A stretch of DNA of 51,986 bases, the filler included, from Sphacelaria rigidula (lineage: Eukaryota): assembly GCA_964200075.2 (NCBI GenBank). It is 4 parts of 4 records of this genome, joined end to end, with 100 filler letters (N's around TTAATTAATTAA, not from the genome) between each part and the next. Parts side by side here need not be neighbours in the genome. Positions count along the whole stretch, not along the records: positions 1 to 12,923 come from CAXNAA020003300.1; 3 more parts are not named here. One strand, given 5' to 3'. Shown one piece after another: positions 1 through 40,968 of the stretch. A program made the position numbers and the translations under genes. Positions within the stretch are counted from its first letter, which is position 1. Each line of letters begins with the position of its first letter. The notes under the pieces are model-generated. The model saw only the letters and a list, made by a program, of their open reading frames with translations, did not search any database and was not told the origin of the DNA.

Positions 1-300
1 TGGCGTGGTGGGCGGTGGTGTAGTTGGCGGTGAGGTGTAGGGAGGTGGTGTGGTAGGCGATGGCGTGGTGGGCGGTGGTGTAGTTGGCGGTGAGGTGTAG
101 GGAGGTGGTGTGGTAGGCGATGGGTGGTGGGCGGTGGTGTAGTTGGCGGTGAGGTGTAGGGAGGTGGTGTGGTAGGCGATGGCGTGGTGGGCGGTGGTGT
201 GGTAGGCGGTGGGGTGTAGGGAGGTGGGGTGGTGGGCGGTTGGGTAGTTGGCGGTGGCGTGGTCGGCGGTGGAGTGATAGGCGGTTGTGTGGTGGGTGGT
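1..300. repeat. 60-bp tandem repeat (15-bp sub-period) encoding PPTTP-type peptides on the minus strand
   Basis: 1-60 and 61-120 are identical; the third unit lacks one C; the pattern degenerates towards 300. Confidence 0.95.
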
Positions 301-328
301 GCGGTGGTGGGCGTCGGTGTCAGTGGCT
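1..328 (-). CDS. Exon: Pro/Thr-rich stalk (EPLTPTPTTAPPTTQPPITPPPTTPPP...)
   Basis: Acceptor gtcgtcag| at 330-329 with a CTGAC branch-like motif at about 351-347, in phase 1 with the preceding Cys exon. One 1-nt indel at about 124 inside the tandem repeat. Confidence 0.7.
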
Positions 329-3300
329 CTGACGACGACATCACCGGTCAGGCAGAACAGCGTGCGCAAGGGACAGTCGTCTTTGCATGATAAGTGATGG
401 ACGGAAAATAATTCGCTGTCCACCGCACGTCGCCGCATTTGACTGTTCTATGATCACAACGGGTGAATCCCATGCCATATACAACGTACACTCCATAGCT
501 GATGTTGGCAATGACCAAAAGCAGAGAATGATATCTCTCCTCCTTCACGTGCCATCGCCATCATAATCACTTCCTTCGTAACAAGCAGTGAAGTCAAACA
601 TGACCGAGATCTGCTCACCACAACACAGTTCTCTGCAGCTGTCGAACTCGCCGTAGTCGCAAGGTGTGGAGAGGGCGACCTGTTCTGTTCCATCGCCGCA
701 CTCGCGCTCCCACCACACGCACGTCGAAGCTGACGCCAAACACGTCAGCATGATGGGTTCACGTCAGGCATGACAACGTGCGCAAGGGACAGTGGTATCG
801 GCGTTATCAAATGACGAAACAGTGGTTCATGCGCGCACCACCCCACGATTCCGCCTCTGGCTAATTCGCGGTTGAGATCGGTGACTGTCACCCTCCAGTC
901 CTCTGACGGCCGCCCGACTGTGGATGGTTGTGTCAGGGCAAACGAACCTCAATCAGCGACCATAAGGCACAAGCGCGTGTAGTAGAGAGTGACAGGATCT
1001 ACAGACGAGTCTGTGGATTGTGTCAGCCGTGATGCAACACACAAAACTAGCCAGTTGATGGTGTCGAGCATGTTGAACTCCAGGCCCAACTATGCAGGTA
1101 CAATTACGGATGAACAATGTTGGTACGAGTGGGTATATTCACCGACGTAACTCGAGCGTTTATGGGTCGATCTCAACAAACGAGAGCTCGGTTCAACCGC
1201 AAGGTTCACGCGATGACCGTTCAGCAACAAAAAAACAAAACAAGAATGCACACAATAGATTGAGGTCCGTTTATGATTTCTTCCTGCTGTTGTCCCTCCA
1301 ATCCTGGCAGGGGTTGGGATATGGCATGCCATATCTCGGGAATGTTGGCGTCGAATTCGACAAACGATAGTTCGGATGAACCACAAGGTCCACGCAATCA
1401 ACGGCCAGCAAAAACAACATCATATATGAATTTAAGATCCTCTTCATGGATTTTCCCGTTGGTGTCCCTCCAATCTTGGCTTGAGGATTGAGATGTGACA
1501 TGCCGTATCTCCGGTATGTTGACGTCGAATTCGACAAACAATTGCTCAGATGAACCGCAAAGCCCACACGGCCAACGGCCAGCAACAACAGCAAATGACA
1601 CGCACACAAGATGTCAAGGACATTTCGTGAATGTTTCCTGATGCTGTCGCTCCAACCCTGGCTCAGTGGTTGAGACATAACATACCATATCCCCGGCATG
1701 TTCACATTGAACTCGACCAACTATTGCTCGGATGAACCGCAAGCGATTACCAGCCAGCAATAACAACAAAAATAAAGGTCACCAAGAAGTGAAGGGACAT
1801 TTTATGAATGCTTCCTGATGCTGTCTCTTCAACCCTGGTTCGGTGGTTGAGATATAATATGCCATGTCGCCGGCGTGTTGATGTCACTTCAATGAACGAC
1901 AAGGTGTTGACATCGGAAACATATCGCTCTATCGTATAGAAAGCCCCCGACAGACATCAGCGCAGTACATCACTGTAAGAGCAATATAGTACACGCAGCG
2001 TAAGAGTACACCGAGCAGTACAAACAGAAGAGTACACGGCACAGACCATACGACCCAGCACAGTACTGTACACACATAGTACAATTGAGTTTCCAGTACA
2101 AGCAATACGATTGAGTACACAGTACAGTACACGCAGATAAATCAGTCACCAGTTCAAGCAGCGCAGTCCAGTCCAGTACAGAGCGCGCAGTATGACCGGT
2201 ATATAGTATAATTAGCGCAGGCAGCGCAATGCAGTACACGCTGAAGTTTTGAGTGCATGATCCTTAGCAATGGTCGTCTTCGCCTCAGCAATGGCTGCCT
2301 TCTCCATAGCAACGGCTGCCTCTCGCCCAGCAACACTTTTTCACGTATTTCAATCTCCCTCTTGATGTATATGCGTGGCTCGTCTCTTAGCACCTTTGGC
2401 GCAGTGCCAGGAATCGCTGCTATTTTCCCACCTCTTTTGCGGGGCATCGCTCTGAGGTGCGCTGTGACCTGCAGCCACCCACTTCTGGTTGTGATATCTA
2501 GCGTGCATCTTCAAAATTTGAAAACGATTTCAAAAGCTCCCTCAGCCATGCCCCCAGGTTTTCGTCGATATGTCGTTTGCATGCTTCTTCAGGAATGTGG
2601 GGATGGCGTTCCTCCCCCCTTACGAAAAACAGTGCTGCCATGGTCATCCTGATCTCTTCCATACTGTACGATACGCCTGTGGGCCAAACCACCACCATTG
2701 GGAAGCAACAGTTGCCAGCTTTCTGACGGCGTGCCCAATGCATTATTATTACTGATGTCCTCCATTTGGCTTCGTCTGAAAACTCACAAGGAAAATATCG
2801 TGTAAACGCGTATGACGAAAGTTATCATTTGCACATTTCTTGCTCGCGCGTTATCTTCCTCCTCCTTACAATGTTCCCCCGTAACAACGAGTACCCTGTA
2901 TTACGATCCAAACTCAATCCCACGTCTGCACGGGTGTACCCGGAGTGGGGGCAATGTCACAGAAAGCACATCGATAGCGATGACACATGTGTGAGTGAGT
3001 GCCAGACTCGGCGGACCGGGGCTAGCGATGACACATGTGTCAGTGAGTGCCAGACTCGGCAGCCTCACTCTCCCCGTGAGACAAGGAAACCTCGGGACAA
3101 ATACACGAGCTCTCGCATAAAATTAGAAGGAGAAATAGACCCGAAAGGAGGGCAGAAAAAAGTTCAACGTGTAGATATAGGTAAGGCTAGATATACGTCG
3201 CGTATAGGGAAGCTCAAAGTGGCGACCTACAGCGTCCGTACACGGTTCCTCACGAGAAAGAGCAAGGCTGGCCATGTTGAGGTGGTACTGCGAAATGACA

Positions 3301-6300
3301 GGCGCTGGGTTGTGATGTTATCATACTGCAGTAGACAGGGAGATCGGGTCGAACCGAGTTTGATTTTGCGGGATACCGCATCTTCTGCTGCGGGGCAAAA
3401 AATGGCAAGAGAAGAGCTGGACAACATGGGGTCGCGTTGGCCCTAGTCAACGACAGCAATGGCATCTCTCTGCTACAACTTGCGGGTGACAGCGGGATTG
3501 GCCTGGTCAATACGATTTCGCTCACCCGAAAGGAAGACACGTCGCGTGTGTCCAACGGTACTGCGAATCGTCCGCGGATATACCTCAACATCGCGTGTGC
3601 CTCAGTGCGGCTACGTAGTCACTTTGCACGCAACAGACCTTGGCCAACTCCCATAGGGCGCCAACCGATCGGCAGGGAGGCAATAGCACCCTACATCGAT
3701 GGACGTGAGCAACTCGCACAGCTGATAATCAGCGAGCTCAAGAACCGCAGAACTGGTGATACAGCCAGCGCATCAGCTGCAAAATTGGTAGGCATACCCC
3801 TGAGCTCCGCTGAGAAAGTGATGCCCCCTCAAACCCAAAAGCTACGTATATTGGAGTGGTTCGGAGATGATGCAACCAGATCGAACTTCGAATAGGCCTG
3901 CAATGAGGGAGAGGGCAAGGTTAATGGTGCGAATGGGACCGAGAGATGACCCCGCATGGTGCACCGTGCACGCAGCACGCGGGAAACTCGAAGGGATCCA
4001 AGCTGAGTGGACACGTATTTAGATGTGTATGCTAGGGAGCTGGAGAAGAATATGAGAGTTGAAAACATAGGAAGATGGTGCAGACACCTGAAAGGAGGAC
4101 GGAGTCTGACGGGACGAAACGTAAGGAGCGAGTAGTGTATCAAGAACAAGTACGGGGACCTACTGGAAGACAAAACCCCACTCTGTGGGTAATGGTAACG
4201 GTACTTCTCCACTTTACGGAACGCCATATCGGCAAGTATCGGCCGAGCGGTTAACCAGAATATTGCGCAACGACCGAGAGGGTTGTCACCTGGAGACCAA
4301 CCAAGCCCAACTGAAACTCAGAATGCCATGAGAGCTATGGCTAACGGCCATGCGACGGGCCCGGGTAGCCTACCTGCTGGGACGAAACCCCAATCGGTGA
4401 GAGATGGTAACGGTAGTTCTCCATCTTACGGAACGCCATATCGGCAAGTATCGGCCGAGCGGTTAACCAGAATATTGCGCAACTACCGATAGGGTTGTCA
4501 CCTGGAGACCCGCCAAGCCCAACTGGAACTGAAGATGACGTGAGAGCAATGGCTAACGGCCATGCGACGGGCTCGGATGGCCTACTTGCTGAACTCCTCA
4601 GGCTTGGATTGATGGGGAAGCTTTCGGAGATTATTTTACCGCTTCCATAGCATCATCGCTGAGGTCTAGACATTTGGCGAGGTGATGCAGGAGTGGGAAG
4701 ACGCCACAATCAAAGTGTTACACAAGAAGGATATGGCCGAGTGTGGACAGGGGCCTCTCTCTTGGCACATGCTGGTAGAGTCTTCCTCAAAGCCGCAGTC
4801 AACAGGCTCGGTAGCTTCTGCGAGGAGGCAGAAATCTTCCCAGAGTAATGATGTCCATTCCGGCGCCAATAAACGACCAACGACATGATATTCGTGGAAG
4901 GCCGCCTACAGGAGTTGGGACAGGCGAGAAATGGCCCACTAAACATATGCTTCGTCGACCTGCAAAAGGCCTTCGACTCCATAGACTGCACGCTCCTGTG
5001 GGAAGTGCTTGCCCAATACCCAGTCCCGCCACGGATGATCGAGGCTATCCGCATGTTTCGCGGTAGCATGCGAGCTCGGGTACAGCTGGACTATGGCGAA
5101 TTATCACTTTGATTCTACACCTGCCAGGGACTCAGATTAGGACGCGTTTCGTCCCCGCCATTGTTCAACGTCTCCGGCCCAGCCTGGGTCGACGTGATCG
5201 TACAGCGTTTCGCGGCAGACCCGGTCATCGTCTCAGACACGGTATTTCTAGATGGTACGCCAATGGTGGCGGCGAAACTCTCGAAGAGACGGCTAAAGAA
5301 GGCGCGGAGCACGGTGTGGGGAATGTTATATGCCGATGACGCCGGCAACACCTCGAGGTCCCCAGATGGGTTTGCTAAAATGACAACCACAAGAGTCATG
5401 ACCTATAAGGAGTTCGGATGAAGGGGATGAGAGAGCAAGACAGAGCCCACGTGCCTGTGATTAGTAAGTACCTAGCTGCGCACAGACTGCATCGCACATC
5501 AAGGCGGCTGGCCAACGCTAGAAGCACACGACCGAGTTTGTCCACCTTGGTGATGTGAGCGCGAATGCGAATATTTCCATCGAAGTCAACCGCCGCATCA
5601 GCGCTGCGTGGTCCCAACTTTATGGTCCGGCCAATGCCCAGCTACGTTTGAAAATCCGCCTGCTTCAAGCAGCGGTAGGGGGAGCTATGCTATTCAGATG
5701 TGCTACATGGACGATGCGTTTCGAGGATTTCAGGAGCCTACCTGCTGTCCACCGAAATATGTTGCTGTGAGTGGTTGGATTCCGCACGAAGCAGCGAACT
5801 CGCCACAAGACTCATTCGTTCAGATATTCGCTCGAGATGGCCACCTGCAAACGTATCGAGGCGACCACCCGCAAGGTCTAGCTCTGGTTCGGAGGGGTCC
5901 TAGTCCGCCAGGATGAGCAGAACACATCATGTTCGAACGGTTAGCCGTGCAATAGTGAAAGGAGGCTAGCCGCCCCTTCATACACTCGGGGAACCTCTTC
6001 CAGGAGAAGCTATGTGCACCAGAGGGCTCTTCGACGAGAAGGAGCACGACGGAAATGGTTCATCGACGGAGTGGAAGTCAACGACGAACGCGATCGGATC
6101 ACTGGCAAAGAACATGGATAAAATACATCTTGGTGTCGGGAATGAGGCACAAGACCCAGACGTGGCGTGGCGACACGATGGAAAACTTTGATTAGACCTT
6201 CCCCACAAACGAGAGGCTGCTGTATCGATAGCCGCCAGTCATCGAGTCGCCACCGGTGATACAACAATATCAATAGTTCGCGAGGACTCCAGGATAGCAA

Positions 6301-9300
6301 TAGTCCAGATAATGTTTCACTTCTTACCCGACTAAAGATGAATGCAGGAAGCTGGGTTAACACGGAAGTGATCCACACCTGTTCCCTCTTGTCGGTCGTT
6401 GACGTTTCCTTGGCCTGTGGATTCGCGGCGTTCCCCAGTTGTGCTTTTGTACATGCTCTACGGCGACCTTGGGTTTCATCGCTCCCTCAGTTTTTCCCTC
6501 TGTTCTTTGTTTCTCTCTCTATATATATCTTCCTCTTCCTCTCTCTCTCTCTCTCGCCATTTCCATTTCATGTGTTATTCATCATCAGTTTGGTGTTTTC
6601 CTTCCATTGGATTTATGGGTGAGAACGCATGTATGGGCCGAAAGAGTTGGGTAACAATTGGTCCGAAATAGTAGGGTCACATTCTGCTCCCACGGTCTTC
6701 TCATTCTGTCTTGTGCATGAGTGCACGTGCTATATGCGCGCTGACTTGTTCACCGGACGCATGATTCACGGCCCAGCCATTTCTACGTTTATTTTGTTTA
6801 TCGCTTTGCTTCATTTTATTTCATTTTCAAAGTTCTTCTCCGCTCCATTCGCCTTCGTTCCTTCTTGATTCTGCTCTGACTGTTCAAGGTTACTATACTT
6901 TTGACTGTTTTGGTCAGGACTTCGGATATATCACTCCCTTTGTTTGTTCTATATTTTGGCCTCTTTCCATGCCTCTCAATCTAGAGCAAGCGTTCCCGAA
7001 ATGTTTACCTCGAGAACTTCTATCTCGAGACCACGGCTGGGTCCGTCAGGGATCAGCGCACGTGCAAAACTCGATCAATGAGTCAATCAAGACAATACAA
7101 CACAATCATACACCGCACAATCCATACCCTGTGCCTGGTGCAATGACCGCAAGCAGAGCATGACTTTTGGTCCCCCTCCACATGTCATCGCCATCAGAAT
7201 AACCTCCCGTAAAAGGAAACAGTGAACGCACACAAGACCGAGATCTGCTCACCACAACACAGCTCGCGGCAGCTTTCCGAGTAGCCGGGGTCGCAAGGTG
7301 TTGCACTGGCAATCAAATCGCTTTCCCCGTCGCACTCGTCCTCCCACGACACGCACGGCGAAGCTGAGAAACAAAATATCGCCAGGTCGGGGTGAGGTCA
7401 AGCAGAAGAACAGCGTGCAAAAGAGACAGGTGTATTCGCGTGACCGACGGACGGATAATGGATCATGTACACGCCACCCCACGTTGCCGCTTCTGGCTGT
7501 TTTCCTGGCCGACATCGGCGATTGTCATGCCATTGCACAACGCATCCCCCGTAGCTGGTGTTGGCAATGACCGCAAGCAGAGCCTGACATCGCTCCCACT
7601 CCACTTTCCATCGCAATCAGGATCAGATCCTCCCTGCCTAACAGTGAACTCACACAAAACCGAGACCTGCTCACCACAACACAGCTCGCCGCAGCTTTCC
7701 CAGTCGCTGTAGTCGCTTTCCGAGTTAAAGTATTCGTAGTCGCACAGTGTGGTGGTACTGGCCAACAATTCTGTTCCGTCGCCGCACTTGCCCTCCCACG
7801 ATACGCACGTCGAAGCTGACGCCAAACAAGCCAGCATATCGGGTTCAAGTCAGGCAGAACAGCGTGCACAATGCACGGTCGTATTCGTGGGATCGAACAC
7901 AGCACATTGCCGTTTCCGGCTGTTTCCCGGCCGACGGTCATGCCACCCATAGCGCATACCCCGTAGCTGGTGTTGGCCATGACCGCAAGCAGAGCCTCAT
8001 ATAGCTCCCGCTCCACATGTCATCGCCATCAAAACAACCCCCCGTCAGAATAAGCAGTCCAATCACACAAAACCGAAATCAGCTCACCACAACACAGCTC
8101 GCCGCAGCTTTCATATTCGCCGTCGTCGCAGATCGTCCAGCTAGGCACCAGCCTTGTTCCGTTGCTACACTCGCCCTCCCACGATGCGCACGTCGAAACT
8201 GACGCCAAACACGGTAGCACGTCAGGTTTAGGGATCGTTTCGTAATGATGACGGAGCCGGGGGGCGCGTGAAAATCATACTGTGACATGTCAGACGTAAA
8301 ATAGTAGTCGAGTCGCCATCGCAAGGAGCGATGGAGCCTCTTGATATGCATTCTGTACTGACCTTGTACGCCCCGCTCGCTTGAGTGTCATCAAGCCCCG
8401 TAATGTGCGAGATCCAATTGTTGTGTAATGCATCGATAGTCGCACACTCCGAGGTCGGTCACAACCTAGCCCTTGTGACACTATGGACTCATCCTACGGA
8501 GGCTGATGAACGCGTAGACCAAAGGAACTTCGGAAAAATATAGCAAAAATAACAATAACGAGGGAGAGAAGTACATCTTTGAACCGACGTAGGCGCGGGG
8601 GTGAGAATTGGCGACAGTCTAGATAAAACGACCAACAGGCCCATGCCAGGGGTTGAGATAGGGAGGCGGTACAAGGGCCAAAACTGTGGAAGCAGGATGA
8701 AAGTTAGCAAAACGGATACCACACTACTAAGATCACTTCGTATGGCAACCAATCCGTCTTTGTACAAATATGAGGATGTCAGCCCGTTTAAATCCGATTT
8801 TCTCCCGTGGATTGACTTTTCGGACCCCGGTCCGTTGGGCAATGTTTTTCGCCCAGCTCTGAGGAAACCAGATCAATTCTCCGATTCTCTGGGCGCTGAC
8901 TTTTGGTTCATCACCTCTCTGCTCAGATACGGCAGTCTCCCCATCTGAGCAGAAAGGTGATGAACCAAAATTCAGCGCCCAGAGAATCGGAGAATTGATA
9001 TGGTTTCCTCAGCGATGAACATTGCCCAACGAACTGGAGTCCGAAAAGTCAATCCACGGGAGAAAATCGGATTTAAACGGGCTGAAATCCTCATATTTGT
9101 ACATATGCGGATTGGTTGCCATACAAAGTGGTCTAAGCACGATCCCTCAACCCATGACTCATGGAGGAACAAAAATGGTGGCACAGTCACAAAATATTTC
9201 CATTATTCGGGCAAGTAGGGTGTGACCATTATTCGGACATAATTATCTCCGCGCCACCGCACGTTACAGCTCCCGGTTGTTTCTTGGTCAATTGTTATGC

Positions 9301-9881
9301 CACGCACAACGAAACCCCGTAGCTGATGTTGGCCATGCCTAGAAGCAGAGCATAACATTGCTCCCACTCCACATGATTGCCATCAGAACAAACGTAATCC
9401 AAATGCAGTAGTCAACTCGAGCATCAACATGATCTGCTCAACGCAACAAAGTGCACAGCAAAGGTGTGGCTCGAAGCCGCATGCTGTGTCAGTGTCCACC
9501 TTCACTGCTCCACCGCCGCACTCGCCGTCCCGTTCCACACGTCGAAACGGGTGCCAAACACGTTTTCATGTCGGGTTTGGGAATCGTGTCCACATGATCA
9601 CGGCGCCGGGGCGCGCCTCAAAATCACAGGATGGCATATCAGACGTACAAAACCGATCTCGATGTCATCTCACGGAACGAGGAGACTATTTTTGTAAACG
9701 TTCTCTGCACTCTCCATGTACGTCCTTGTCGCTCGAGTAGCAGCAAGTCGCGTAATGTGCGTGATCCGGTTGTTGTGCAATAGATCGATAGTACTGCACT
9801 CACGAGTCCGGTCAGAACGCAGTGGTTGTCGCACTTTGGACTCACCCCAGGAACTTGATAAACCACGCTCGCCTAAGGAAT
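1..9881 (-). CDS. Spliced gene (partial): Cys-rich tandem-exon repeat protein with Pro/Thr mucin-like stalk
   Basis: Phase-consistent join of 9881-9846, 8198-8088, 7815-7675, 7363-7253, 729-619 and 328-1. All introns are GT..AG in phase 1. The 5' exons are not resolved and the 3' end runs off the scaffold. Confidence 0.75.
619..729 (-). CDS. Cys-module exon (A)STCVWWERECGDGTEQVALSTPCDYGEFDSCRELCC
   Basis: 111 bp, gcgtcag| acceptor, |gtgagc donor, phase 1-1, no stops. Confidence 0.8.
1150..1900. repeat. Degenerate ~175-180 bp tandem repeat, about 4 copies
   Basis: The motif ttcctgatgctgtc.ctccaaccctggc...gtcgaattcgac...gatgaaccgcaa recurs at about 1271, 1443, 1624 and 1801. Confidence 0.85.
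2766..7103 (+). mobile_element. Decayed RTE-clade LINE retrotransposon (APE endonuclease + reverse transcriptase)
   Basis: APE-like start LKVATYSVRT at about 3211. RT motifs CFVDLQKAFDSID (about 4948), GLRLG...PPLFNV and WGMLYADDAG (about 5317). Many stops and frameshifts. The 3' end carries gagaccacggctgg..(caat)n at 7028-7103. The 5' boundary is approximate. Confidence 0.9.
4192..4590 (+). repeat. ~210-bp tandem duplication inside the LINE
   Basis: atggtaacggta.ttctcca..ttacggaacgccatatcggcaagtatcggccgagcgg... occurs at about 4192 and again at about 4404. Confidence 0.9.
7253..7363 (-). CDS. Cys-module exon (A)SPCVSWEDECDGESDLIASATPCDPGYSESCRELCC
   Basis: 111 bp, ttttgtttctcag| acceptor, |gtgagc donor, phase 1-1. 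Confidence 0.8.
7675..7815 (-). CDS. Cys-module exon (A)STCVSWEGKCGDGTELLASTTTLCDYEYFNSESDYSDWESCGELCC
   Basis: 141 bp, i.e. 30 nt longer than its siblings and still in frame. AG/GT intact, phase 1-1. Confidence 0.8.
8088..8198 (-). CDS. Cys-module exon (V)STCASWEGECSNGTRLVPSWTICDDGEYESCGELCC
   Basis: 111 bp, gcgtcag| acceptor with an upstream cctgac, |gtgagc donor. Confidence 0.8.
8493..8529 (-). pseudogene. Dead copy of the 36-bp exon at 9846-9881
   Basis: Paralogous context; the donor reads |atgagtcc instead of |gtgagtcc. Confidence 0.5.
8731..9133. mobile_element. Foldback MITE, PIF/Harbinger (Tourist)-like, TAA target-site duplication
   Basis: About 200-bp inverted arms with a short loop at about 8930-8942, flanked by taa on both sides. 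The paralogous segment at about 10074-10105 shows the empty site. Confidence 0.9.
9442..9547 (-). pseudogene. Dead Cys-module exon
   Basis: Homologous to the live modules, but the acceptor is ccg (not cag), the donor is ttgagc (not gtgagc), and there is a frameshift. Confidence 0.7.
9846..9881 (-). CDS. 36-bp phase 1-1 exon (D)SLGERGLSSSW
   Basis: tttccttccag| acceptor and |gtgagt donor; phase compatible with the downstream Cys exons. Confidence 0.55.
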
Positions 9882-11576
9882 CTGGAAGGAAACACTAGGG
9901 AGGACAATGATGAAGGAAATAACCATGTCTTCCAATTTGATCCAGGCACCGGGCTACGAGTTGGTAACGGTTCCGAGAAAACGTCTGGTAGGCCTATGCC
10001 ACAGCTTGAGGTCAGGAGGCGGTACAAAGACCAGGGCTCAGGAAATGAGTTACAACTTAGCTAAACGGAGATCGCACTATTAAACTCGAGCTATCAACCT
10101 ACGAGTCAGGAAGAAAAGAAAAACAGCCCCACAACCGCAACATCTTCTTCATCGCAGTATGATAGCCTTGACAAGTAGGGCGTACACATTTCTCGCGTAC
10201 GATAGAGCATGGCTGCTTGGGTAGAGGAGAAACGTGGAGGGAAAACTGACGTCGGCAATGGACGGGTGGCTGGGTGCACTGCTGGTGGGCGCGCAGGGGT
10301 CATCTGCGCAAAGATCAAGAACAACACCAAGACATCTGTCGGTCGGGTGCGGTATCACAAAAGAACACATGACAACACCCCCTTCGCCTGCTACGTCACG
10401 GTCGGAAAATGAGAAGTTTTACACGAGTGCACCGAATTCGCCACGGTGTGCAAATGGTCTTCAAACCGAATGCGTGCAGCCTTGGAGGTCAAGCTTTTAT
10501 GCGAAATCAGTCATCCCAAGTGGTTCGATCGGCACATATACCAAACCAATGCGGCGCCAATATTGCAAGGTCACCGTATATATCCGGTGTCGCGTTTTCA
10601 CCGCAGAGTGTAGCTCGGCCCTTGTTTGTCTTGTCCGCGAAAGAAGCGGGGTTCACCGCACGTTACAGTAAGCAAAGCGCAGGTTCAACATCACAACGAG
10701 CATCAATAAGGCAAACGAGGTGGGTTTACCCAAGTTCGTCGTTAAAATGTCCATGGTGGGAACACTTTACATCTACCAGGTCCTACCGTGACTATAACCC
10801 CAACCCAAACCCAAGCCCCAGCTAAACCCAGAATCCTCGGGCAAGGCGGGTGTAAATGCTGCTATTGTCAAGGACTTTGCTGGCAGGGGTCGGATCGTCG
10901 CTATGCGATGCAGATTTGTGAACAAAACGCGTGCTTCACACACCGTCGACCGGTTGGGACTGTCAATTCCTCAAAATATTCCAAACATCGACCCTCACAC
11001 CAAACCCTCGGTGAAATGCTCATGGCTTCTTTGACGAAGAACTCACGTATATCCTGCTGTGACAAACAGCAAGTACAAGACAATCAACACGTGCGTACGG
11101 CATGGAACAAAAAAACGCCACGAAACTCCAGAGAGCAAACAGTCGACTCCGAGGATTCGCTGTATTTCTACCAAAAGCTGTAGCAAGACTCTGAAATGCA
11201 CTCTACGTCGGCATGCACGAGTATTCAACCGCAACGGCATCCGAAACCCCGCCACGTACATACTTCGAGATGCCTCGTGATCAAAGCGCTACCTTGACGC
11301 ACCCTCGCTGCTCCTGCAATCGTGCGCATCCAACTCTGCGATCCAGAACCAGCGGGGTTTGTGTTTGAAGTTGCGCGCGCATTTATCACCGCCGCAAAAG
11401 CCGTCACATGATCAGGGGGGAAAAGGGACGAAAGGAAGGAGCAAAGGAGAGTGAGAATACGAAACGATATGCATCGCCCTCAATGCCTTGTCATCGGCTG
11501 TACTCCGGAGTACGACAATACGTGTCTGATCAGTTCTTGCACTGCCGACCGGGGCCCCTGCAATTGCTCATCTCAC

Positions 11577-11774
11577 CTGTGGATAAAATTCTGTGTCGTC
11601 CTCGACCCCATCTTTGCGTTCATCGGCGGCTGCTCTACCCTCAGGCCTCGGTTCGTTTGCCTCGTCTCTCCTGCTCCCGCTTGCGTCTAATGTTGCTACG
11701 AAGCGATCGTACTTCGATAACGGTGACTGCTGATCCGGATCTGGATGTGCCATCCGACGATGCGAAGAAAGCAC
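11577..11774 (-). CDS. Possible upstream exon (MAHPDPDQQSPLSKYDRF...DDTEFYPQ)
   Basis: Open frame ending in a strong cag|gtgaga donor. No acceptor or phase link to the Cys gene could be established. Confidence 0.25.
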
Positions 11775-12923
11775 ACCGTGAGGGTAAATGAAGGTGACAA
11801 GACGTGACGGACTGCAAATACCTGTGTGTCGCTAGAATGTAGATGGCACAGCATACATAAGTAGGGTCCGGGGTGCTACCGCCTACCCGTCAACCAAATA
11901 TCCGGATTTTTCGGCACAGCGAGAGTGACCTCATGGTAAACGTATGTTGTGATGCCTGGTTGCACATTGGCGGGGGACGTGAAAAGAAAAGCCATTCGGA
12001 ATTTCAAACAAGAACCGTCGTTTACCGTGCTACATGTCTCGAAGAGGCTTCCATTGCGGCACGGCCTTGCGCGTGCCTCATACCCACTCGACCGACTCGC
12101 AATATTTGCTGTACGGTATCGAACGCAAGAGTGTCTCCAACGCGCATGGAACCGGAATAGCACATCAGCCGTGTCGAGTGCCTGCACTACAAGTTGGAGA
12201 CCGGAATTACGGGACTCTAAGGAACACCAGGTATGCACTCGTTACATCGTTTTTCTTTTCAATGAAAGCACAGTAAAAAAAAAACGTTTTGCCTTCTAAA
12301 CAATTGTTCATCCATTGTTTTACTTCCCTCCGTGTGTACGGTTACAGCGTAGCAGGATCTGAGGATTGCGGATCGGACCTGACTGAGCCGCATTCTCCAT
12401 TCGCAATACACAATTGGGAGGTGGAAGTGATCCAAAACGGAGTTCCACAACGGAGTATTGGAGTGAACGCGGGAGTATGTTTCAGAATGAGCACGGGAGC
12501 GTAAGTCGAGCTCGCGTTCGGGGTCTTTACATGTGACAAGCATGCTTAACGGTCTAGATAATGCGGCAGTTGGAGTCCAGCGTACGAAAACCCGCATCGT
12601 GTTTTGCTCCAATCGTCCGGGTATTTTCCTCTTTTCCACTTCTGCAAGGATTGTATTCTCGACTCGTGCAGTGAAAATGTTTTTTCTTTCTCGGCTGTAG
12701 GGTATGAGGAGATAGTATATTTTACTGTACCGTATAATGCTGAATGGTACAGTACTTTCAGGTTGTGCCAGTGGCTTCTTTTTCTCTTCTTTACATACTC
12801 TGCACCCCCCCCCCCCTCCCCTCCTGTCTCTGGAAGTGGCGATACCAAAAAATAGAGCAACTCATCGTAGGCTGTCATCCAAATGCAAGATATTCCGTAG
12901 GCTTCGGGCCGAACAATCTTAGC

Positions 12924-13023
12924 NNNNNNNNNNNNNNNNNNNNNNNNNNNNNNNNNNNNNNNNNNNNTTAATTAATTAANNNNNNNNNNNNNNNNNNNNN
13001 NNNNNNNNNNNNNNNNNNNNNNN
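12924..13023. other. Artificial 100-bp scaffold linker (N + TTAATTAATTAA + N)
   Basis: Seen directly. Confidence 0.99.
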
Positions 13024-14281: not shown

Positions 14282-14640
14282 CCGCACATTAGAACATTAT
14301 TGATCAGACGATTAATACGATATGCGGATCACGGCCCAACTCGTCTGTGTCGTTGAGATATCGCTTTTAGAGCCTGAATCCGTTTTTTGGCTAGCCCAGC
14401 TCGTAGTTCATGAGCTTCCTCTCGAAAAAACGGCGGAACGACTGCGAGCGGTCGAGCGCCCCAGCCCTTGAGTAACCAATGTTATCTTACAACAAACCCT
14501 AGCGTACTTTTGCGTCTGTCTCCAGATCGATGCAAAGAAGCTGGAAACTTCTCCCAGGAGACGCAAAGCNNNNNNNNNNCTCACAACCCCCCACCCCCCT
14601 TTTCTCCTGTCTCCCTCCCCCCAAAAAAAAACAAGAAATC

Positions 14641-14677
<37 letters not shown>

Positions 14678-15828
14678 CCCAGCGCGCGCAATGGTTTTGG
14701 ACCAAATGGGAATTGATCACAATTCGGGCACCGCCCCGGTATGATATATCATGTTTTGGGACATTTCTTTCAGCTCAGGCAGAGCAAAGAAAGTATCTTG
14801 ATCTTATATGATAAGATAGGACAACCTCGATATATTGGAACATTGAGACAGTAACATTCGTGACATCCCCACCATTTGTTTTCGCCGAATAGGAGGTCAT
14901 CAGGGGTATGGCTCTGAGAAATATCTCCCTGTGCCCCCTTGGTCGATGGCGAACCAATCACACACGCGGAGACAATGTATCGGCTAAGCTCCAACGCATC
15001 TGGCCACAACGTCTAACAGTTATAATACAGATACAGTACAGTACATGTTTCCCCAAGTCATCAACACGAAGGACAGGGTACACTCGGTCAACACTACAGG
15101 CCTTGAGTGCGCTCGCCCCCAGTAGTCTGCTGCGTTGCAAACCCACGAGTGCTCTCCCGCTCAGCAATTCCTGAGCAAAATGAATGCGACTTCCAGCCTG
15201 ACAACTGTAGTACAACCGCACTCCATTCGACTGCGGGGTTGAGAAAAAAAGCATCATCCGTCCTGTGCACGATAGCACAGTTCAACTACTGCTGTTGCTA
15301 TGTGCAGCACAGAGTCTTGACACAGGGCTGCTACCTATTACAGTACGGCAGAAGGGTTAGGTGTGGCCATCAGTGGCTACTATAGATTGCGTCCATCAGC
15401 TGTCTTGGGCACGGTATCTCCTGGAGAGGGTATTGTTATATACTGGTTAAGTATCACCCAACCAGGCAGAATCTGGTTTGAAGACGGGTCGGTTACTGAG
15501 TGGCCAGCCTCTACCCTGAATCCAAATAAATCAATTCATGAACCCATGGTGCTTTACAACAGTAAGCTTGACTTCATGCAGAGTAATCAATCACATATAT
15601 GGTTGAAAGGGGTTTGTACTGAGGTTCTATTTTTCGGATAATTTGCGTGATAGTCGTCAAAATGCACAAACGACTATGAGCCAACTGGTGTTTTGGACGT
15701 TAGGCAGTTATAGTTTCGAAATGTTTAATTATCAAATCCCGAAATCTCCTATTCGATCACCACACCCCGCCCGGAGCAGACATTGATTTTCGGATTACAG
15801 ATGAAAACCTTTCCCGCCTCATGCTTAC

Positions 15829-15953: not shown

Positions 15954-18900
15954 CTGTTATTTGTTATTCAGGCGCGCAATGCCCCAAGCAGGAATTTGCT
16001 TCGTTGAATGAAACCTGAGTACGAAATCTGAAACACCGCAGTGAGTAACCGGCGACGCGAGTCAAGCAAAAAACACGTGGACTCTAGGACTATTCGGAGT
16101 AAGAGGGGTGAACAAGATAGCGTATCTGCCTGAACTTAAGCAATGGCGCGCATACTTGCCCGGGAGTGAAAAAAATAAATGGTCGGTATCGAGTATCGAG
16201 ACTCGTGTCGCCGTTTGTCCTGATGGATGTATGGCGTTCTCATTCAACGCGAGCTATGCCAAAAACCTGCAGAGGACATGTAAGTAGGTGCTTGCCGGAG
16301 GTCTGAACTACAATATTCGACGAGCTCCAGGCGCTTATATTTTTAGTGTGTGTGTTGTCGTCCCATTTATTCTGGGCGCCAGTCTACACCTTTCGCTATA
16401 TGTGGGCGCACCAGTCGGGGTCACTCAGCAGGAAGGTCAACACAGGAGCTTTTTCTTTTAATTTATTTTTAGTACCCCACCTTCCTTCTGCGGTGCTTGC
16501 CTTCTTATTTTTCATCGCGAGAGGGTTCAGCAGTCCCTTTCCCCCGTCGACCGTTACGTCGAATATTGTGTACCCACGACATAGTCGCTCTCCACTGTTG
16601 GGCATAGTGTGAGAAAAAATCCCAGATGGCTCCGGGAATCGAACCCACGACCCAACCGTGAGATGTTACCAACTGAGCCACCGGGGCGACCAGTACCGTA
16701 GTCCTGCTAAGAATTGCCTGATCCGCAATGTGCCAACGCATTACATGGCTCGACAGGCTTGAATCCTGCATACTACCAACGCAAAATCGGCGCCTATCCT
16801 ACGCAAAAGTCCCATTGATGGAGATAGATTAACCCGTGGACAATAGTCTATCCAGAACAGCCGGTGGATGCAAAGACTCAAAGCTATCCCCAAAGAGTAC
16901 GCTATCCCTTACAATTCGGTCGGCAAAGAGTAAAAACTGTGAAAGGCTACCGGATCAACCAGGCAATAACCACAACAGAAATAAACATTTCGGCCATCGT
17001 CGTAAGCTAACTATTCCCGTTAGACTTCAACGACCTGTGGTTTTCTGCACCTTGATGGGGGCCGTTGCCAAGGAAACCAGGGTTCCATCTCGACATACAG
17101 CAGAAGCCGCTGGCTGCAGGCTCATCGCCGGCACACCTGCTTCCAGCAATGCTGCGGTAACTAGCCTGTGCTGCGTCAACCGACGAGGGTGTACAGTAGG
17201 TATATGGTGTGGTGCGGAACTAGATAGAAGAGAAGGAAGTTTCTGGTTGAGCGATCAGACCCCTTTGTTTGTGAAACAGCAGCAATATTAAAAAAGTCTT
17301 CACGACTTACTTTCGAGCTCTGTACGTATGTCCAAGAACTCATACATTGCCAAATGCAATACGATCGTATCTCCTCAGACAGTCCTGCCTTTCGCCAATC
17401 TACAGCCCATGATACTGATCAACCCAACTCCAGAACAGCTGACTGCACTGGGTTGGGTCTTTGAGCATATACTCGTTTCCCTATAGTACTGCCCCAGTTT
17501 TATACTTTGGGGCTACGTAGGCGTATGGGGTACTCTAGGTCCACCTGGTCAGCCTCGATGCTGCGTCGCTGACTTCGCAGAAACCTCGCCATTGCGCCCG
17601 GCCGGAGACGCCATCCCTAGTGCCGTGCTCGGCAGCCGGAATGTGCCCGAAAGATCCACTACCGTGCCCAACAATGATGCGCGTCGCGATCGGTGATTGT
17701 GCGATTGCGTCGCGTATTTCTCTAGATTGGCAGCATTCAAGGATGGTAAAAAGGTCGTGTGACGGAGAGTTTGTACGTTGCAGTAGCTAGGCTACAAAGA
17801 CAGTAGCCAAGATCACACGGCATACCGTGCAACAGTTGATCAGTATCTTTCACAGGAACCGTGGATAAGGTACCTTACCAAGAGTAACCCCGGTATTTAC
17901 CGGGGTATCCCATGCCGTGGCATGCGTGGGTGTCGTAGGTATGAGTTTTGAAAATACCTGAGTGAGCGGGTACGGTAGGTATTGGTATCTCGAAATACCG
18001 TGGTATCGTAGGTATCGTAGGCATGAGTTTTGAAAACACCTGACCGAGCGGGTACGGTAGGTATTGGTATCTCGAAACACCGTGGTATTGTAATTACCGT
18101 AGGTATGACATATGAAAATACCCGATTGGGCAGGTACGGTAGGTACTGGTATCTCGAAATACCGTGGTATCGTGGGTATCGTAGGTATGAGTTTTGAAGA
18201 TACCTACCTGGCTGGACCGGTATTGGTAGGGTATGAGATGTCCCAAATACCAGTACCAGGTACCTGCCTTACCCTCTATACCGAATTCATAACTGTCACC
18301 CGGAAGGGCGGAGAAGCGTTTCAGGGCGTGTCTGGGCAAAAAAATAACTAAAGAAAAAATGTGGCGGTGGATTTGATTTGAGCGAAAATCGCACATTTTT
18401 GTCGAGTTGGGTCCAATCGAATGTTCAAGCTTTCGATCGAAAAAAGACGGTGAAATTGGTGAAACGGTGCATGTCCCTCTTGTACAGTACAGACAATCTG
18501 TACTGTCTGCACCGCTTGCAAGTAGCGTGTCTCGAGTGCGTGTGTGCGTGTTTCGTACAAAAAGATTTTCAACAGAAGCGGGCAACGTGCAGTGCAGACA
18601 GCCCAGGATTATCAGTTTTCTCTGCTCACAACGCGACGTGAAAAGGACCTCAACAACGTGCAGCTTTGCTGCCTGCACTGTCCATGAGCGTGTACGCAAC
18701 TCGGTTGCCCGCCGTACCACGCAGTTCCGTCGCCGATCCTACCATGAAAGAAGATGCGCAAGTTTTCGCCAACAAATAATAAACAAAGCATACCTAGCTA
18801 CTGCAGCGTATATATCCCTGTGCTCAACTCGTACTCGATGCTGCAGGGTTGGGACGGTAGCTGAGAATGAGTTGGATGGAGTTAGCATGGTTCTGTAAAC

Positions 18901-20259
18901 GGGTGTTGTCTGGCGTGGTGGTCTGTAAGATAAAAGTCAAGTGCCACTTCGTGCCTTTCGACCGCATGTTTTCGATCGAAAAAGCTTGGCTTCTTTACTT
19001 TGTAGTTTTCCTCCGCGCGCCACGAATTACAAATTTGATTTGAAGCCTTCTGAGAACAGAAATTCGGTGGACCAACCAGATCGAGAAACAAATTCGACCG
19101 CACTCCAAACTAGATAATAATGAGTTCATTCGAATTGATCCAAAGACGCAAATAAGGGGAAATCTGGGTAAATATCACTTGTGAACACAAGACGTACTTG
19201 CTCCGACAACCTCTGGCCTTTGCATAGTAAGTTGGGACCAGCTGCTGCACCGTGGGGAGTGCATCGCGTCCGGTATAATCGGGTATACCCCGGTATTTCC
19301 CGGGGTATCCCATACCGTGGTATGCGTAGGTATCGTAGGTATGTGTTTTGAAAATACCCGATTGAGCGGGTACGGTAGGTATTGAAATATCGAAATACCG
19401 TGGTATCGTAGGTATCGTTGGTATCGTAGGTATCTTAGGTATGAGTTTTGAAAGTACCTGCTTGAGCAGGTACGTTAGGTATTGGTATTTCGAAATACCG
19501 TGGTATCGTAGGTATCGTACGTACGACATGTAAAAATACCCGATTGGGCGGGTACGGCAGGTATTGAAATCTCGAAATACCGTTGTATCGTGGGTATCGT
19601 AGGTATGAGTTTTGAAAATACCCGATCGAGCGGGTACGGTAGGTACTGCAATCACGAAATACCGTGGTATCGTAGGTATGTCATTTGAAAATACCAGTAC
19701 CGGCTACCTACCTTACCTACGGTGCCTGCGGTGTCTTTCTCGCTCAAGAGTTTCCTTGGAGTATCTAGTCGTTTCCTCGTGCCGTTTTGCGCTCTGTCAC
19801 CCGAACGTTTCAAAAACCAATTTCAAGGCGAAGATTTATCTAGGTGGACGCTATGAAAGACAATGCTTATATTACAGGCACTTAGTCGTAATGTAAAACT
19901 CTTGTACTTCAACTGTGACCATACGCTGTGTAGTGTACAGCGATAGAGCGCGTCATAGGCATGCAGTACAAGTATCCCCCTTCCCCCACAAAGCACCCAT
20001 TATGTAAACCAATTTTGATTCTGTTCCGATATGAAGAACATCACCTAGATATGCGAGCCAAGACATCTGGTCTGAGAGTTTCCTTCTCCGTTTTATCGCT
20101 GATGAGGCTGCCTCCCAACTTGATGAGCACTAATTCGCCATTGCGTCCAATTTCTGGTGCATAACCAGAAGCCTTGGCAACAACAGTATCCCTGAGTATA
20201 CCCGACATCTTAGTGCTGCTGGCCTGTTTTTCGGTCGATGCTATCATCCGCTTTGTCAT
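15829..20259 (-). CDS. ipk: Isopentenyl phosphate kinase (amino-acid kinase family), spliced, C-terminal part not found
   Basis: Phase-consistent join of 20259-20045, 17721-17545, 17165-17051 and 15953-15829 gives LVLIKLGGSLISDK...IIVGHGSGSFGH...LLEAGVPA...GLVPVVHGDVAFD...ASTEEIF. The start codon is uncertain (the frame is open to 20328). Confidence 0.9.
16346..16691 (-). mobile_element. tRNA-derived SINE in an IPK intron
   Basis: Pol III A-box tggctcagttgg (16680-16669), B-box ggttcgattcc (16645-16635) and a (CA)n tail. A second copy lies at 36925-37483. Confidence 0.8.
17051..17165 (-). CDS. ipk: IPK exon 3 (LVTAALLEAGVPAMSLQPAASAVCRDG)
   Basis: cacag| acceptor, |gtgcag donor, phase 2-0. 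Confidence 0.9.
17545..17721 (-). CDS. ipk: IPK exon 2 (GHGSGSFGH with the IPK-specific His)
   Basis: ctag| acceptor, |gtggac donor, 177 bp, phase 2-2. Confidence 0.9.
17856..18275. repeat. ggtatcgtaggtat...gaaaatacc minisatellite element, copy 1
   Basis: About 70-80-bp internal units; same family and orientation as 19248-19724. Confidence 0.85.
19248..19724. mobile_element. Minisatellite-filled non-autonomous element, copy 2
   Basis: Short inverted termini caccgtgg...cctacggtg around 70-80-bp tandem units. No TSD recognised. Confidence 0.65.
20045..20259 (-). CDS. ipk: IPK exon 1 (KLGGSLISDK)
   Basis: ag|gtgatg donor, phase 2. Confidence 0.88.
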
Positions 20260-25945: not shown

Positions 25946-26045
25946 NNNNNNNNNNNNNNNNNNNNNNNNNNNNNNNNNNNNNNNNNNNNTTAATTAATTA
26001 ANNNNNNNNNNNNNNNNNNNNNNNNNNNNNNNNNNNNNNNNNNNN
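25946..26045. other. Artificial 100-bp scaffold linker
   Basis: Seen directly. Confidence 0.99.
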
Positions 26046-38662: not shown

Positions 38663-38966
38663 TGCGCACTATATTTTCCATTCAGGGACATGCGCGTACC
38701 TTTCAATATGGCTCCGTTACTCGTTAAGAGGCGACCCCCGTCCCCCCCTCCCCCAAGCAGGGCCGGCGTAATGAGCGCCGAGATGTTGTAGATATCTCTA
38801 TTAGCGGTAGGAACGGTGCCCCGTCTCGAGAGGGATGCGTGGTCAATGGTCAAACGACTAGGGCAAGCAACAAATGAGTACCCCCCCCCCCACCCCCCCC
38901 CCCCCCCCCCCCCCCCAACCCCCCCCCCCCACACACCCCACCACGAACCCCACGAACCGCAGACAA

Positions 38967-39066
38967 NNNNNNNNNNNNNNNNNNNNNNNNNNNNNNNNNN
39001 NNNNNNNNNNTTAATTAATTAANNNNNNNNNNNNNNNNNNNNNNNNNNNNNNNNNNNNNNNNNNNN
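38967..39066. other. Artificial 100-bp scaffold linker
   Basis: Seen directly. Confidence 0.99.
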
Positions 39067-40702: not shown

Positions 40703-40805
40703 GTAATAATAGTAGTAGTAATAATAATAGTAGTAGTAATAATAATAGTAGTAGTAATAATAATAGTAGTAGTAGTAATAATAATAGTAGTAGTAGTAAT
40801 AATAA

Positions 40806-40879
<74 letters not shown>

Positions 40880-40900
40880 ATAATAATAATAATAATAATG

Positions 40901-40945
<45 letters not shown>

Positions 40946-40968
40946 TTGATAATAATAATAATAATAAA
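40703..40968. repeat. Compound (TAA)n/(TAG)n microsatellite
   Basis: Seen directly. Confidence 0.98.

Follow-up and report, generated by a model that had tools for sequence, protein, structure and literature searches.

Four six-cysteine cassette exons and a Pro/Thr-rich stalk in an expressed brown-algal gene fragment from Sphacelaria rigidula

Results

Part of a real, expressed brown-algal gene lies on the minus strand of the first 12.9-kb piece of the Sphacelaria rigidula DNA analysed here (the window, 51,986 nt in all). The visible product consists, in order, of a charged N-terminal region of 80 or more residues, four abutting acidic six-Cys modules of ~37 residues, and a Pro/Thr-rich stalk. 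The gene continues past both ends of the 12.9-kb piece, and thus the start codon, signal peptide, transmembrane segment, GPI signal and C-terminus fall outside the view.

Each module is encoded by its own minus-strand exon, three of 111 nt (E1, 8088..8198; E3, 7253..7363; E4, 619..729) and one of 141 nt (E2, 7675..7815). All four are phase 1-1, are preceded by cag and followed by gtgagc, and are supported by both the sequence and contig joins; a re-reading of the sequence agrees with the original prediction on each of these points. What had looked like a frameshifted repeat is indeed a tandem exon-plus-intron array, with homologous, indel-bearing introns and exon lengths that differ in frame only (by a total of 30 nt, most readily taken as 3 + 27 nt). 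Exon E2 has one additional codon in the C2-C3 loop and 9 in the C3-C4 loop, the latter looking like an internal duplication of that loop.

The four modules conform to the pattern S-[TP]-C-x2-W-E-x2-C-x12(13)-C-D-x5(14)-S-C-x-E-L-C-C, with a Cys spacing of C-x6-C-x12-C-x7-C-x3-C-C. A strict six-frame scan of the whole window with this pattern gave five matches, four of which are the cassette exons; the fifth (11066-11260) is interrupted by stop codons and was rejected as chance. The modules are strongly acidic (net charge -6 to -9 each), and an N-x-[ST] sequon is found only in that of E1. Structure prediction gave no confident fold for the module (pLDDT 51.8 and 57.5), and disulfide bonding is therefore proposed from composition only.

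The three short introns, E1-E2 (7816..8087, 272 nt), E2-E3 (7364..7674, 311 nt) and E4-stalk (329..618, 290 nt), were defined by alignment and contigs and have a pairwise identity of 69-73%, with 4-6 gap openings per pair. The E3-E4 intron (730..7252) spans 6.5 kb, and BLAST of a unit revealed homology with the short introns at both of its ends. This long intron has been enlarged by repeats and by a decayed LINE reverse transcriptase on the plus strand (4873-5421), whose RVT_1 profile match (E 0.0031) is under the cut-off. Among candidate relatives of this reverse transcriptase, 191 of 211 match PF00078 at E<=0.001, and the three that carry names among the 120 listed are all from Ectocarpus or Sphacelaria, by which the host genome is judged to be brown-algal. 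A further intron, between a 76-nt upstream exon (see below) and E1, harbours a high-copy, near-palindromic, MITE-like element of ~410 bp (8727..9137, no strand assigned), the arms of which are 90% complementary over 126 nt and 93% over 75 nt; DNA depth in its bin reaches ~68,000 vs a baseline of ~67.

Splicing was assessed with assembled contigs, not reads, from three runs of one study (X6, X9 and X10) that are probably RNA, the type being guessed. Contig 13 of X6 (1359 nt, 0 mismatches to the genome) joins 204-328, 619-729, 7253-7363, 7675-7815, 8088-8198, a further 76 nt, 11577-11742 and 518 nt more. X10 contigs 8, 9 and 10 and X9 contig 19 are consistent with these joins, and the introns are skipped exactly, with 0 mismatches, in X6 contig 13, X10 contigs 8 and 10, and X9 contig 19; both the 290-nt and the 6.5-kb intron are absent from the RNA-type contigs. 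Contig 1 of the DNA run X1, in contrast, reads unbroken through the introns from 204 to 4243, and X1 contigs 3-5 are likewise collinear with the genome. Junctions are thus present in RNA-type and absent from DNA-type sequence, as for an expressed, spliced gene, and the joins that had been proposed are exact. RNA-type contig depths of 9-18 in the three samples correspond to moderate expression. As a separate observation, X9 contig 18 (7787-7864) continues unspliced from E2 into the 272-nt intron.

Two exons lie upstream of E1, both on the minus strand. A 166-nt exon (11577..11742, cag..gtgaga), defined by the contig join and by frame reading, encodes 55 charged residues and lacks an in-frame Met, which places the start codon further 5'. 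The contigs of all three RNA-type runs contain 76 letters between this exon and E1, and we infer that they derive from 11260..11335 (cag..gtacgt, phase 0 to 1). Depth arithmetic on the bin 11181-11610 gives 110 covered nt (34 + 76) in all three runs, and 11260..11335 is the sole 76-nt AG..GT interval in that bin to keep the frame open, which then extends unbroken across the 166-nt and 76-nt exons and on into E1. A further 517-533 nt of the transcript's 5' part, known from the contigs of the probable RNA runs, lie outside the window. The visible N-terminal 80 residues are charged and without hydrophobic character, an observation that speaks against secretion.

At the other end, the array splices in phase onto a Pro/Thr-rich exon, as predicted: the RNA-type contigs join exon 619-729 to position 328, and the frame carried over by the last base of the former continues through 69 residues, of which 49% are Pro, 36% Thr and 90% P+A+S+T. 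This stalk exon (1..328, minus strand) is partial, leaving the window at its start, with RNA-type contigs covering 204-328. It contains 5.3 copies of a 60-nt (20-aa) repeat with a 15-nt sub-period, the kind of long Pro/Thr/Ser-rich tandem repeat found in mucin-like or HRGP-type glycoproteins, and by composition we describe it as mucin- or HRGP-like. A match to extensin (PF02095, Extensin_1) at 12.2 bits and E 0.16, vs a gathering score of 105 bits, was rejected. One repeat copy is short of a base near 122-124, beyond which the spliced frame reads as a His/Arg/Pro-rich string with no added stop within the window. The tandem repeat is covered by repeat-collapsed contigs only, and the 1-nt change may therefore stem from misassembly or be genuine; in the latter case the C-terminal part would not be Pro/Thr-rich.

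A fifth cassette (9442..9547, minus strand, 106 nt) is dead. Its acceptor has changed from cag to ccg and its donor from gtgagc to ttgagc, and it carries a 2-nt and a 3-nt deletion. With its upstream flank (9519-10083) it is 68% identical to E1 and flank (8168-8730), of which it is a segmental duplicate. There is no RNA-type depth in 9461-10750, and the contigs link 8198 straight to the upstream exons. Cassette loss has hence occurred at least once.

The cassette units are ~30% diverged from each other, about equally and with no near-identical copies, the exons being 67-77% identical pairwise. Counted at >=90% likeness, DNA coverage of the cassettes (74-82) hardly exceeds the single-copy baseline of 67, which excludes a large family of near-identical copies. 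The predicted fixed Cys/Trp scaffold with varying residues between is borne out, 14 of 36 aligned positions being invariant across the four modules, including all six Cys and the Trp; at these 14 positions dN = 0, with a pooled dS of 0.27. For the 29 non-Cys/Trp codons, dN (0.30-0.53) is about equal to dS and to intron divergence (0.33-0.40), which fits loop drift, not demonstrable positive selection. Purifying selection acts on the Cys/Trp/acidic scaffold, and the loops change at an approximately neutral rate. The alignments show that the array originated by tandem duplication of exon-plus-intron units, since when there has been slow birth-and-death of cassettes, with four live and one dead.

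Searches of Pfam, PDB sequences, JGI metagenomes and 1.84 billion representative proteins with the module returned no match, in keeping with the module not having been recognised previously. The protein sets do include brown-algal proteins, and within the databases searched conservation can be traced only across the four internal copies. As far as these tools see, the module appears to be undescribed as a family. The ShKT domain was weighed as a candidate on account of the six Cys in ~36 residues and a C-x3-C near the end. None of the four modules matches ShKT (PF01549) at E<=10, and their C-x3-C-C end differs from the terminal C-x3-C-x2-C of that domain; EGF models likewise match none at E<=10, and where EGF has C-x-C between its 4th and 5th Cys the module ends in C-x3-C-C. 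A single module matched heat-stable enterotoxin ST (PF02048; 17.1 bits, E 0.008, vs a cut-off of 21.1 bits), which we judged to be chance because it rests on the short C-x-E-L-C-C string. LRR/TPR receptor repeat exons were rejected too, as the cassettes are 111/141-nt phase 1 exons without LRR or TPR match. From the 170 ORFs of at least 90 aa in the window, 75 of at least 120 aa were picked, and none of them gave a Pfam match at E<=0.001; the ends of the gene lie outside this window. The part of the gene inside it shows no NB-ARC or ROC-COR signalling domain.

Discussion

The reading that we favour, and hold to be reasonably probable, is of an orphan wall or surface glycoprotein that probably is secreted, disulfide-bonded and O-glycosylated, its gene being the outcome of old exon-plus-intron duplication with slow birth-and-death. 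The protein would enter the secretory pathway, and each module may fold as a small knob with three disulfides, as its even number of Cys, its lack of C-x2-C pairs and its aromatic residues suggest. An O-glycosylated stalk would hold the modules off the wall or membrane. The product could then be a chimeric glycoprotein of the wall, extracellular matrix or surface that is restricted to this lineage. Its negatively charged knobs may interact with cations, polysaccharides of the wall or further surface molecules.

The original prediction went further and saw a candidate surface recognition or adhesion system, which remains speculation, a guess. The array would then diversify by frequent gain and loss, shuffling and exon skipping, a route proposed for the LRR/TPR receptors of brown algae. 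Symmetrical phase 1-1 exons do permit each cassette to be left out or copied without loss of frame, variable loops sit on a fixed scaffold, and there is one dead cassette, the segmental duplicate. The 22 variable codons are also less identical (nucleotide identity 0.48-0.65) than the introns (0.69-0.73), although these codons were chosen post hoc because they vary, and for the non-scaffold codons defined a priori dN approximates intron K and dS. The units are old and about equally divergent, depth leaves no room for a large near-identical family, and the protein sets searched, which include brown-algal proteins, yielded no relatives. Cassette loss is supported to the extent of one dead cassette; active diversification is not supported. 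Exon skipping found no support, there being no skipped-exon joint listed among the X6, X9 and X10 contigs. In X10, contigs end around the 141-nt exon precisely at a 30-nt string common to the E1|E2 and E2|E3 junctions; this string would be a (k-1)-mer node solely in an assembly at k=31, which is an assumption. We regard a diversifying recognition system as unlikely.

The one-repeat-per-exon LRR-ROCO and NB-ARC-TPR candidate receptors of brown algae are documented as claimed in Zambounis et al. 2012 (PMC3341825) and PMC11378527. They share with the present locus the lineage and one repeat per symmetrical exon, so that gain, loss or skipping of a unit keeps the frame, and PMC3341825 describes non-coding TPR exon copies in introns, much as the dead cassette lies in an intron here. 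However, LRR exons are 72 nt and phase 2 in PMC11378527, as opposed to six-Cys exons of 111/141 nt and phase 1, and here there are only four live cassettes, ~30% diverged, with neither shuffling to the opposite strand nor alternative splicing seen. A genome-wide Ectocarpus screen (PMC3341825) found exon shuffling essentially confined to LRR and TPR genes, and the cassette locus falls outside these classes.

A transcribed gene in decay, still spliced yet with a broken stalk frame and a non-functional product, is quite improbable. The 1-nt deletion in one 60-nt repeat copy that shifts the frame near 124, the dead cassette, the TE and MITE-like insertions in introns, and the lack of homologues in the protein sets searched would all suit it. 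Against this, four cassettes keep open frames, six Cys and splice sites despite ~30% divergence, with dN = 0 at 14 positions; expression is moderate in three samples; and the frameshift, which brings no stop in the window, may stem from assembly of the repeat.

An intracellular metallothionein- or zinc-module-like repeat protein that binds metal and is not secreted would account for 24 Cys in 154 module residues, with a terminal Cys-Cys pair in each module, for the acidity, and for a charged visible N-terminal part in which no signal peptide is seen. It is very unlikely, however, as the four modules contain no C-x2-C pairs, C-x-C pairs or His ligands, the conserved Trp and other aromatics present are unusual for metallothioneins, a 90% P+A+S+T stalk is typical of O-glycosylated extracellular linkers, and no zinc-finger or metallothionein family in Pfam matches even at E<=10. 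Tandem, near-equal small Cys-rich units with variable loops resemble the multi-copy peptide precursors of plants and animals, but a polyprotein releasing each 36-46-aa module as an antimicrobial, pheromone-like or signalling peptide is most unlikely, given that only three residues (A-S-T/P) separate the last Cys of one module from the first Cys of the next, that the four-module sequence contains neither dibasic sites nor any other motif for spacing or cleavage, and that the long downstream Pro/Thr stalk is atypical.

A close architectural parallel is with metazoan class 1-1 modules such as EGF-like repeats, which are also ~40-aa six-Cys units borne in tandem, one per phase 1-1 exon. EGF-like repeats, as discussed by Patthy, occur in extracellular mosaic proteins, often beside mucin-like Ser/Thr/Pro regions. 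Unlike these, the present module lacks the EGF C-x-C signature and matches no EGF model; it arose independently, in a stramenopile. PMC8307928, citing Herve et al. 2016, records chimeric AGP-like core proteins in brown algae, and these, like the plant PAC-domain proteins of PMC7177597, combine a Pro-rich, presumably O-glycosylated region with a small conserved-Cys domain, proposed to bind wall polysaccharides or O-glycans. The stalk here, in contrast, is made of PPTTP-type repeats, not AP/SP glycomodules, and its Cys modules have no sequence relationship to that domain.

Complex multicellularity and an extracellular matrix arose in brown algae separately from those of animals and plants, and to our knowledge very few brown-algal wall and surface proteins have been characterised. 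At present the locus is one lineage-restricted gene fragment with a putative function, a well-documented lead and not a surprise. It is rather improbable that the cassette is the founding member of a second brown-algal exon-cassette system, a stalk-mounted extracellular binding module whose copy number and loops vary between strains, paralogues and isoforms for surface recognition. If true, such a system would stand beside the LRR/TPR receptors and serve at the algal surface to recognise self and non-self, gametes, epiphytes or pathogens. As it stands, the locus offers a clean, RNA-supported example in a stramenopile of the animal-style build of one putative disulfide module per phase 1-1 exon, and adds an undescribed small Cys module that is a candidate for binding alginate, fucans or cations.

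Cassette exons and stalk

Four cassette exons, E1 (8198..8088, 111 nt), E2 (7815..7675, 141 nt), E3 (7363..7253, 111 nt) and E4 (729..619, 111 nt), were located on the minus strand. Each lies between cag on its 5' side and gtgagc on its 3' side, each is of phase 1-1 (with two bases before the first full codon and one after the last), and each encodes a single six-cysteine module with the pattern S-[TP]-C-x2-W-E-x2-C-x12-C-D-x5-S-C-x-E-L-C-C. When the 51,986-nt window was scanned strictly for this pattern in all six frames, it returned the four exons plus a single chance match interrupted by stop codons. In an alignment anchored on the third Cys, 14 of the 36 module positions do not vary (six Cys, Trp, two Glu, Asp, Leu, two Ser and Thr). 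The invariant Cys are even in number without C-x2-C pairs, and the aromatics are conserved. Every module is acidic, with a net charge of -6 to -9, and abutting modules are joined by linkers of three residues.

The last base of E4 combines with an exon starting at 328 (minus strand), and the frame stays open into 69 stalk residues (49% Pro, 36% Thr, 90% P+A+S+T) encoded by repeats of 60 nt that have a sub-period of 15 nt. One copy of this Pro/Thr repeat is a base short at about 122-124, changing the spliced frame; past ~124 the reading is rich in His, Arg and Pro and free of stops to the start of the window, in a region (1-203) covered by repeat-collapsed contigs only. This 1-nt shift near 124 either reflects misassembly of the collapsed repeat or is real.

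Splicing and extent of the gene

The sequencing-run index lists DNA-type runs containing the stretch and three runs of small share (X6, X9 and X10) whose RNA type is a software guess, none of the runs listed being recorded as RNA. Contigs of these three were aligned to 1-12900. Two further runs, X4 and X5, contain 87% and 56% of the sequence words. X6 contig 13 (1359 nt, 0 mismatches) joins 204-328, 619-729, 7253-7363, 7675-7815, 8088-8198, 76 letters, 11577-11742 and 518 more letters. Contig 8 of X10 likewise joins 204-328, 619-729 and 7253-7363, and both X10 contig 10 and X9 contig 19 run from 8088-8198 through the same 76 letters into 11577-11742. The genome and the DNA run X1, in contrast, are collinear, with X1 contig 1 spanning 204-4243 and contigs 3-5 traversing the cassettes. 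The junctions of the original prediction are thus all used, and its underlying observation of a spliced exon series is strengthened by these RNA-derived contigs. X9 contig 18 spans 7787-7864, running past E2 into the intron, and is unspliced RNA or DNA carry-over. All three runs come from one study, the RNA label is a guess and the contigs carry no isoform proportions; intron-free, exon-restricted contigs are nevertheless difficult to explain other than as RNA.

These contigs extend the gene upstream. A 166-nt exon (11742..11577, minus strand), flanked by cag and gtgaga, has one open frame of 55 residues without Met. To the 76 letters separating it from E1 we assigned a 76-nt exon at 11335..11260 (minus strand), a position inferred from bin depth and reading frame: X6, X9 and X10 each show 110 covered bases at contig depth in the bin 11181-11610, the sum of 76 nt and of 34 nt belonging to the 166-nt exon, and 11335..11260 is the sole 76-nt AG..GT interval in that bin that keeps the frame open into E1. 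The contigs continue for 517, 518 and 533 nt 5' of 11742. As for the first exon or exons, RNA-type cover is absent from 11743-12470, and 12471-12900 is masked by a very high-copy element. The gene overruns piece 1 (1-12923) at both ends, the visible part being internal; the start codon, any signal peptide and the C-terminus lie beyond it.

At the end of piece 1, 12824-12892 shows extreme depth in every run, with abundant loose ends on either side (depth of its bin ~26,000 in the RNA-type runs and ~811,000 in the DNA run), and has no Rfam match. The four ~12.92-kb pieces of the window are separated by spacers of the form N44-TTAATTAATTAA-N44 at 12924-13023, 25946-26045 and 38967-39066, and piece 1 has no BLAST match to the other three at E ≤ 1e-10. 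In those other pieces we noted 82-nt tandem repeats at two nearby sites (17915-18205 and 19318-19679), a long (TAG/TAA)n array (40704-40967) and long poly-G or poly-C runs adjoining 10-N gaps (14570-14700 and 38881-38939).

No cassette-skipping joint occurs among the joints listed for the X6, X9 and X10 contigs, which is not evidence of absence. The X10 contigs break on both sides of E2, overlapping their neighbours by 5 + 25 = 30 letters, and a 30-nt string of that kind is common to the E1/E2 and E2/E3 junctions. On the assumption that the contigs were built at k = 31, the assembly graph would branch at the shared string, which would account for the breaks at E2.

Origin of the array

Pairwise identity among the three short introns (272, 311 and 290 nt) is 69-73%, and each pair requires 4-6 gap openings; among the cassette exons it is 67-77%, and any length difference preserves the frame. 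Both ends of the 6.5-kb E3-E4 intron match the short introns. Within it lie four to five tandem copies of a ~180-nt unit (1127-1880; DNA depth ~2,990 in the bin), a 212-nt tandem duplication of 88% identity (4169-4591) and, on the plus strand, a decayed LINE (non-LTR) reverse transcriptase (4873-5421; RVT_1 E 0.0031, below cut-off). For the LINE fragment, 191 of 211 candidate relatives were confirmed at E ≤ 0.001. PF00078 was found in nearly all of the 120 relatives listed, three of which also carry PF03372; the three named among these 120 come from Ectocarpus sp. CCAP 1310/34 and Sphacelaria rigidula, which puts the window in Phaeophyceae.

A dead fifth cassette was identified at 9442-9547 (minus strand), with the acceptor reading ccg, the donor ttgagc, and deletions of 2 nt and 3 nt. 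No RNA-type cover was found over it, and the contigs skip 9442-9547. Together with its flank, it forms a duplicate (9519-10083) of E1 and its flank (8168-8730), 68% identical over 570 nt. Each segment includes ~530 nt of upstream intron, making this a longer unit type distinct from the 420-nt cassette units. Between E1 and the dead cassette lies a near-palindromic element of ~410 bp (8727-9137; arms of 126 nt, 90% complementary, and 75 nt, 93% complementary), whose depth reaches ~68,000 in the DNA run (baseline 67) and 66-87 in the RNA-type runs, and which resembles a MITE-type repeat.

The homologous introns, the E1 duplicate and the dead cassette show that the array grew through tandem duplication of exon+intron units of two sizes, with the loss of at least one cassette. 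The locus had been predicted to be an exon+intron cassette array, and the homologous introns, in-frame exon lengths and spliced contigs show this to be right.

Divergence and selection

The units have all diverged substantially and to about the same degree, and therefore give no sign of rapid or recent turnover. The 14 invariant codons have a dN of 0 and a pooled dS of 0.27; for the 29 codons that are not part of the Cys/Trp scaffold, dN lies at 0.30-0.53 and dS at 0.27-0.99, against an intron divergence of 0.33-0.40. Purifying selection acts on the scaffold, and the loops drift at a roughly neutral rate. NG86 dN/dS is 0.54 for the 36 codons pooled and 0.85 for variable codons chosen post hoc. 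We set these ratios aside as support for diversifying selection owing to the small sample and biased codon choice; four copies of 36 codons are too few to show or exclude positive selection.

The original prediction had further proposed that the array is a diversifying recognition or adhesion system. That proposal is unsupported by old-looking, about equally diverged units and by joints of which none listed skips a cassette, and we regard it as unlikely, if the strongest of the alternatives. Somewhat less probable still is a transcribed gene in decay, with a dead cassette and a possible frame change in the stalk on one side, and a scaffold under purifying selection on the other.

Family and structure searches

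The module had been described as unrecognised, and this was borne out, with nothing matching in Pfam, representative proteins, PDB or JGI metagenomes. None of the four modules reached the Pfam cut-off. The single sub-threshold line, to a heat-stable enterotoxin family, is due to the C-x-E-L-C-C string and was rejected; EGF and ShKT domains were ruled out by profile and by Cys spacing. An hmmsearch with a four-module profile against 1,835,955,588 representative proteins gave 0 hits at E ≤ 0.001, although a 36-position profile at this database size detects only close or multi-module relatives. A word-seeded search for longer proteins confirmed 0 of 109 candidates at E ≤ 10, and a search with the N-terminal exon 0 of 143 at E ≤ 1. 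The blank for the module is somewhat more meaningful because the same protein collection includes brown-algal proteins (the Ectocarpus and Sphacelaria LINE relatives); gene callers may overlook 111-nt exons, which limits what blank protein searches mean.

The ESM Atlas gave no usable match to the module, and PDB sequences only an 11-residue chance match (E 1.8). In JGI metagenomes, 0 of 158 protein-pattern matches were confirmed, and a 19-nt DNA pattern of exon end plus donor led to 14 loci, none encoding the module. AlphaFold2 gave no confident model for the 46-aa and 36-aa modules from four-row alignments (pLDDT 51.8 and 57.5, respectively). Over the whole window there were 0 Rfam matches, and 0 Pfam matches for its 75 ORFs of at least 120 aa. 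No description of the module in brown algae was found in literature whose coverage mostly excludes subscription papers.

Discussion

Invariant Cys that are even in number and form no C-x2-C pairs, conserved aromatics, three-residue linkers and a stalk of 90% P+A+S+T suggest that the protein is probably a secreted or surface-attached chimeric wall or matrix glycoprotein; the surface protein originally proposed is, to that extent, plausible. Each module would fold with three disulfides, the stalk would serve as an O-glycosylated spacer, and cations or wall polymers could be the ligands of the strongly acidic knobs. Such a glycoprotein would be of the general kind of mucins and HRGP/AGP chimeras, and AGP-like chimeras are reported from brown algae (PMC8307928). 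The same Cys-rich modules might instead be intracellular metal-binding repeats, which the Cys pattern and stalk make improbable. A peptide polyprotein precursor, for which the tandem modules on short linkers could be taken, is the least likely reading.

In construction the locus is like the class 1-1 modules of animals, for example EGF repeats. The closest system within the same lineage is that of the brown-algal candidate immune receptors, whose one-repeat-per-exon arrays of LRR (72 nt, phase 2) and TPR, with dead repeat exons in introns, are described in PMC3341825 and PMC11378527. The cassette logic is the same. This locus departs from those arrays in the kind of module and in the size and phase of its exons, and the visible part of the gene shows neither an NB-ARC nor a ROC-COR domain. 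According to PMC3341825, exon shuffling in Ectocarpus is overwhelmingly limited to LRR/TPR loci, with candidates outside them in its supplementary table 2; this locus is therefore an example outside those loci. Here a cassette logic that is already known carries an orphan Cys module, with the exon-cassette array set on a mucin-like stalk.
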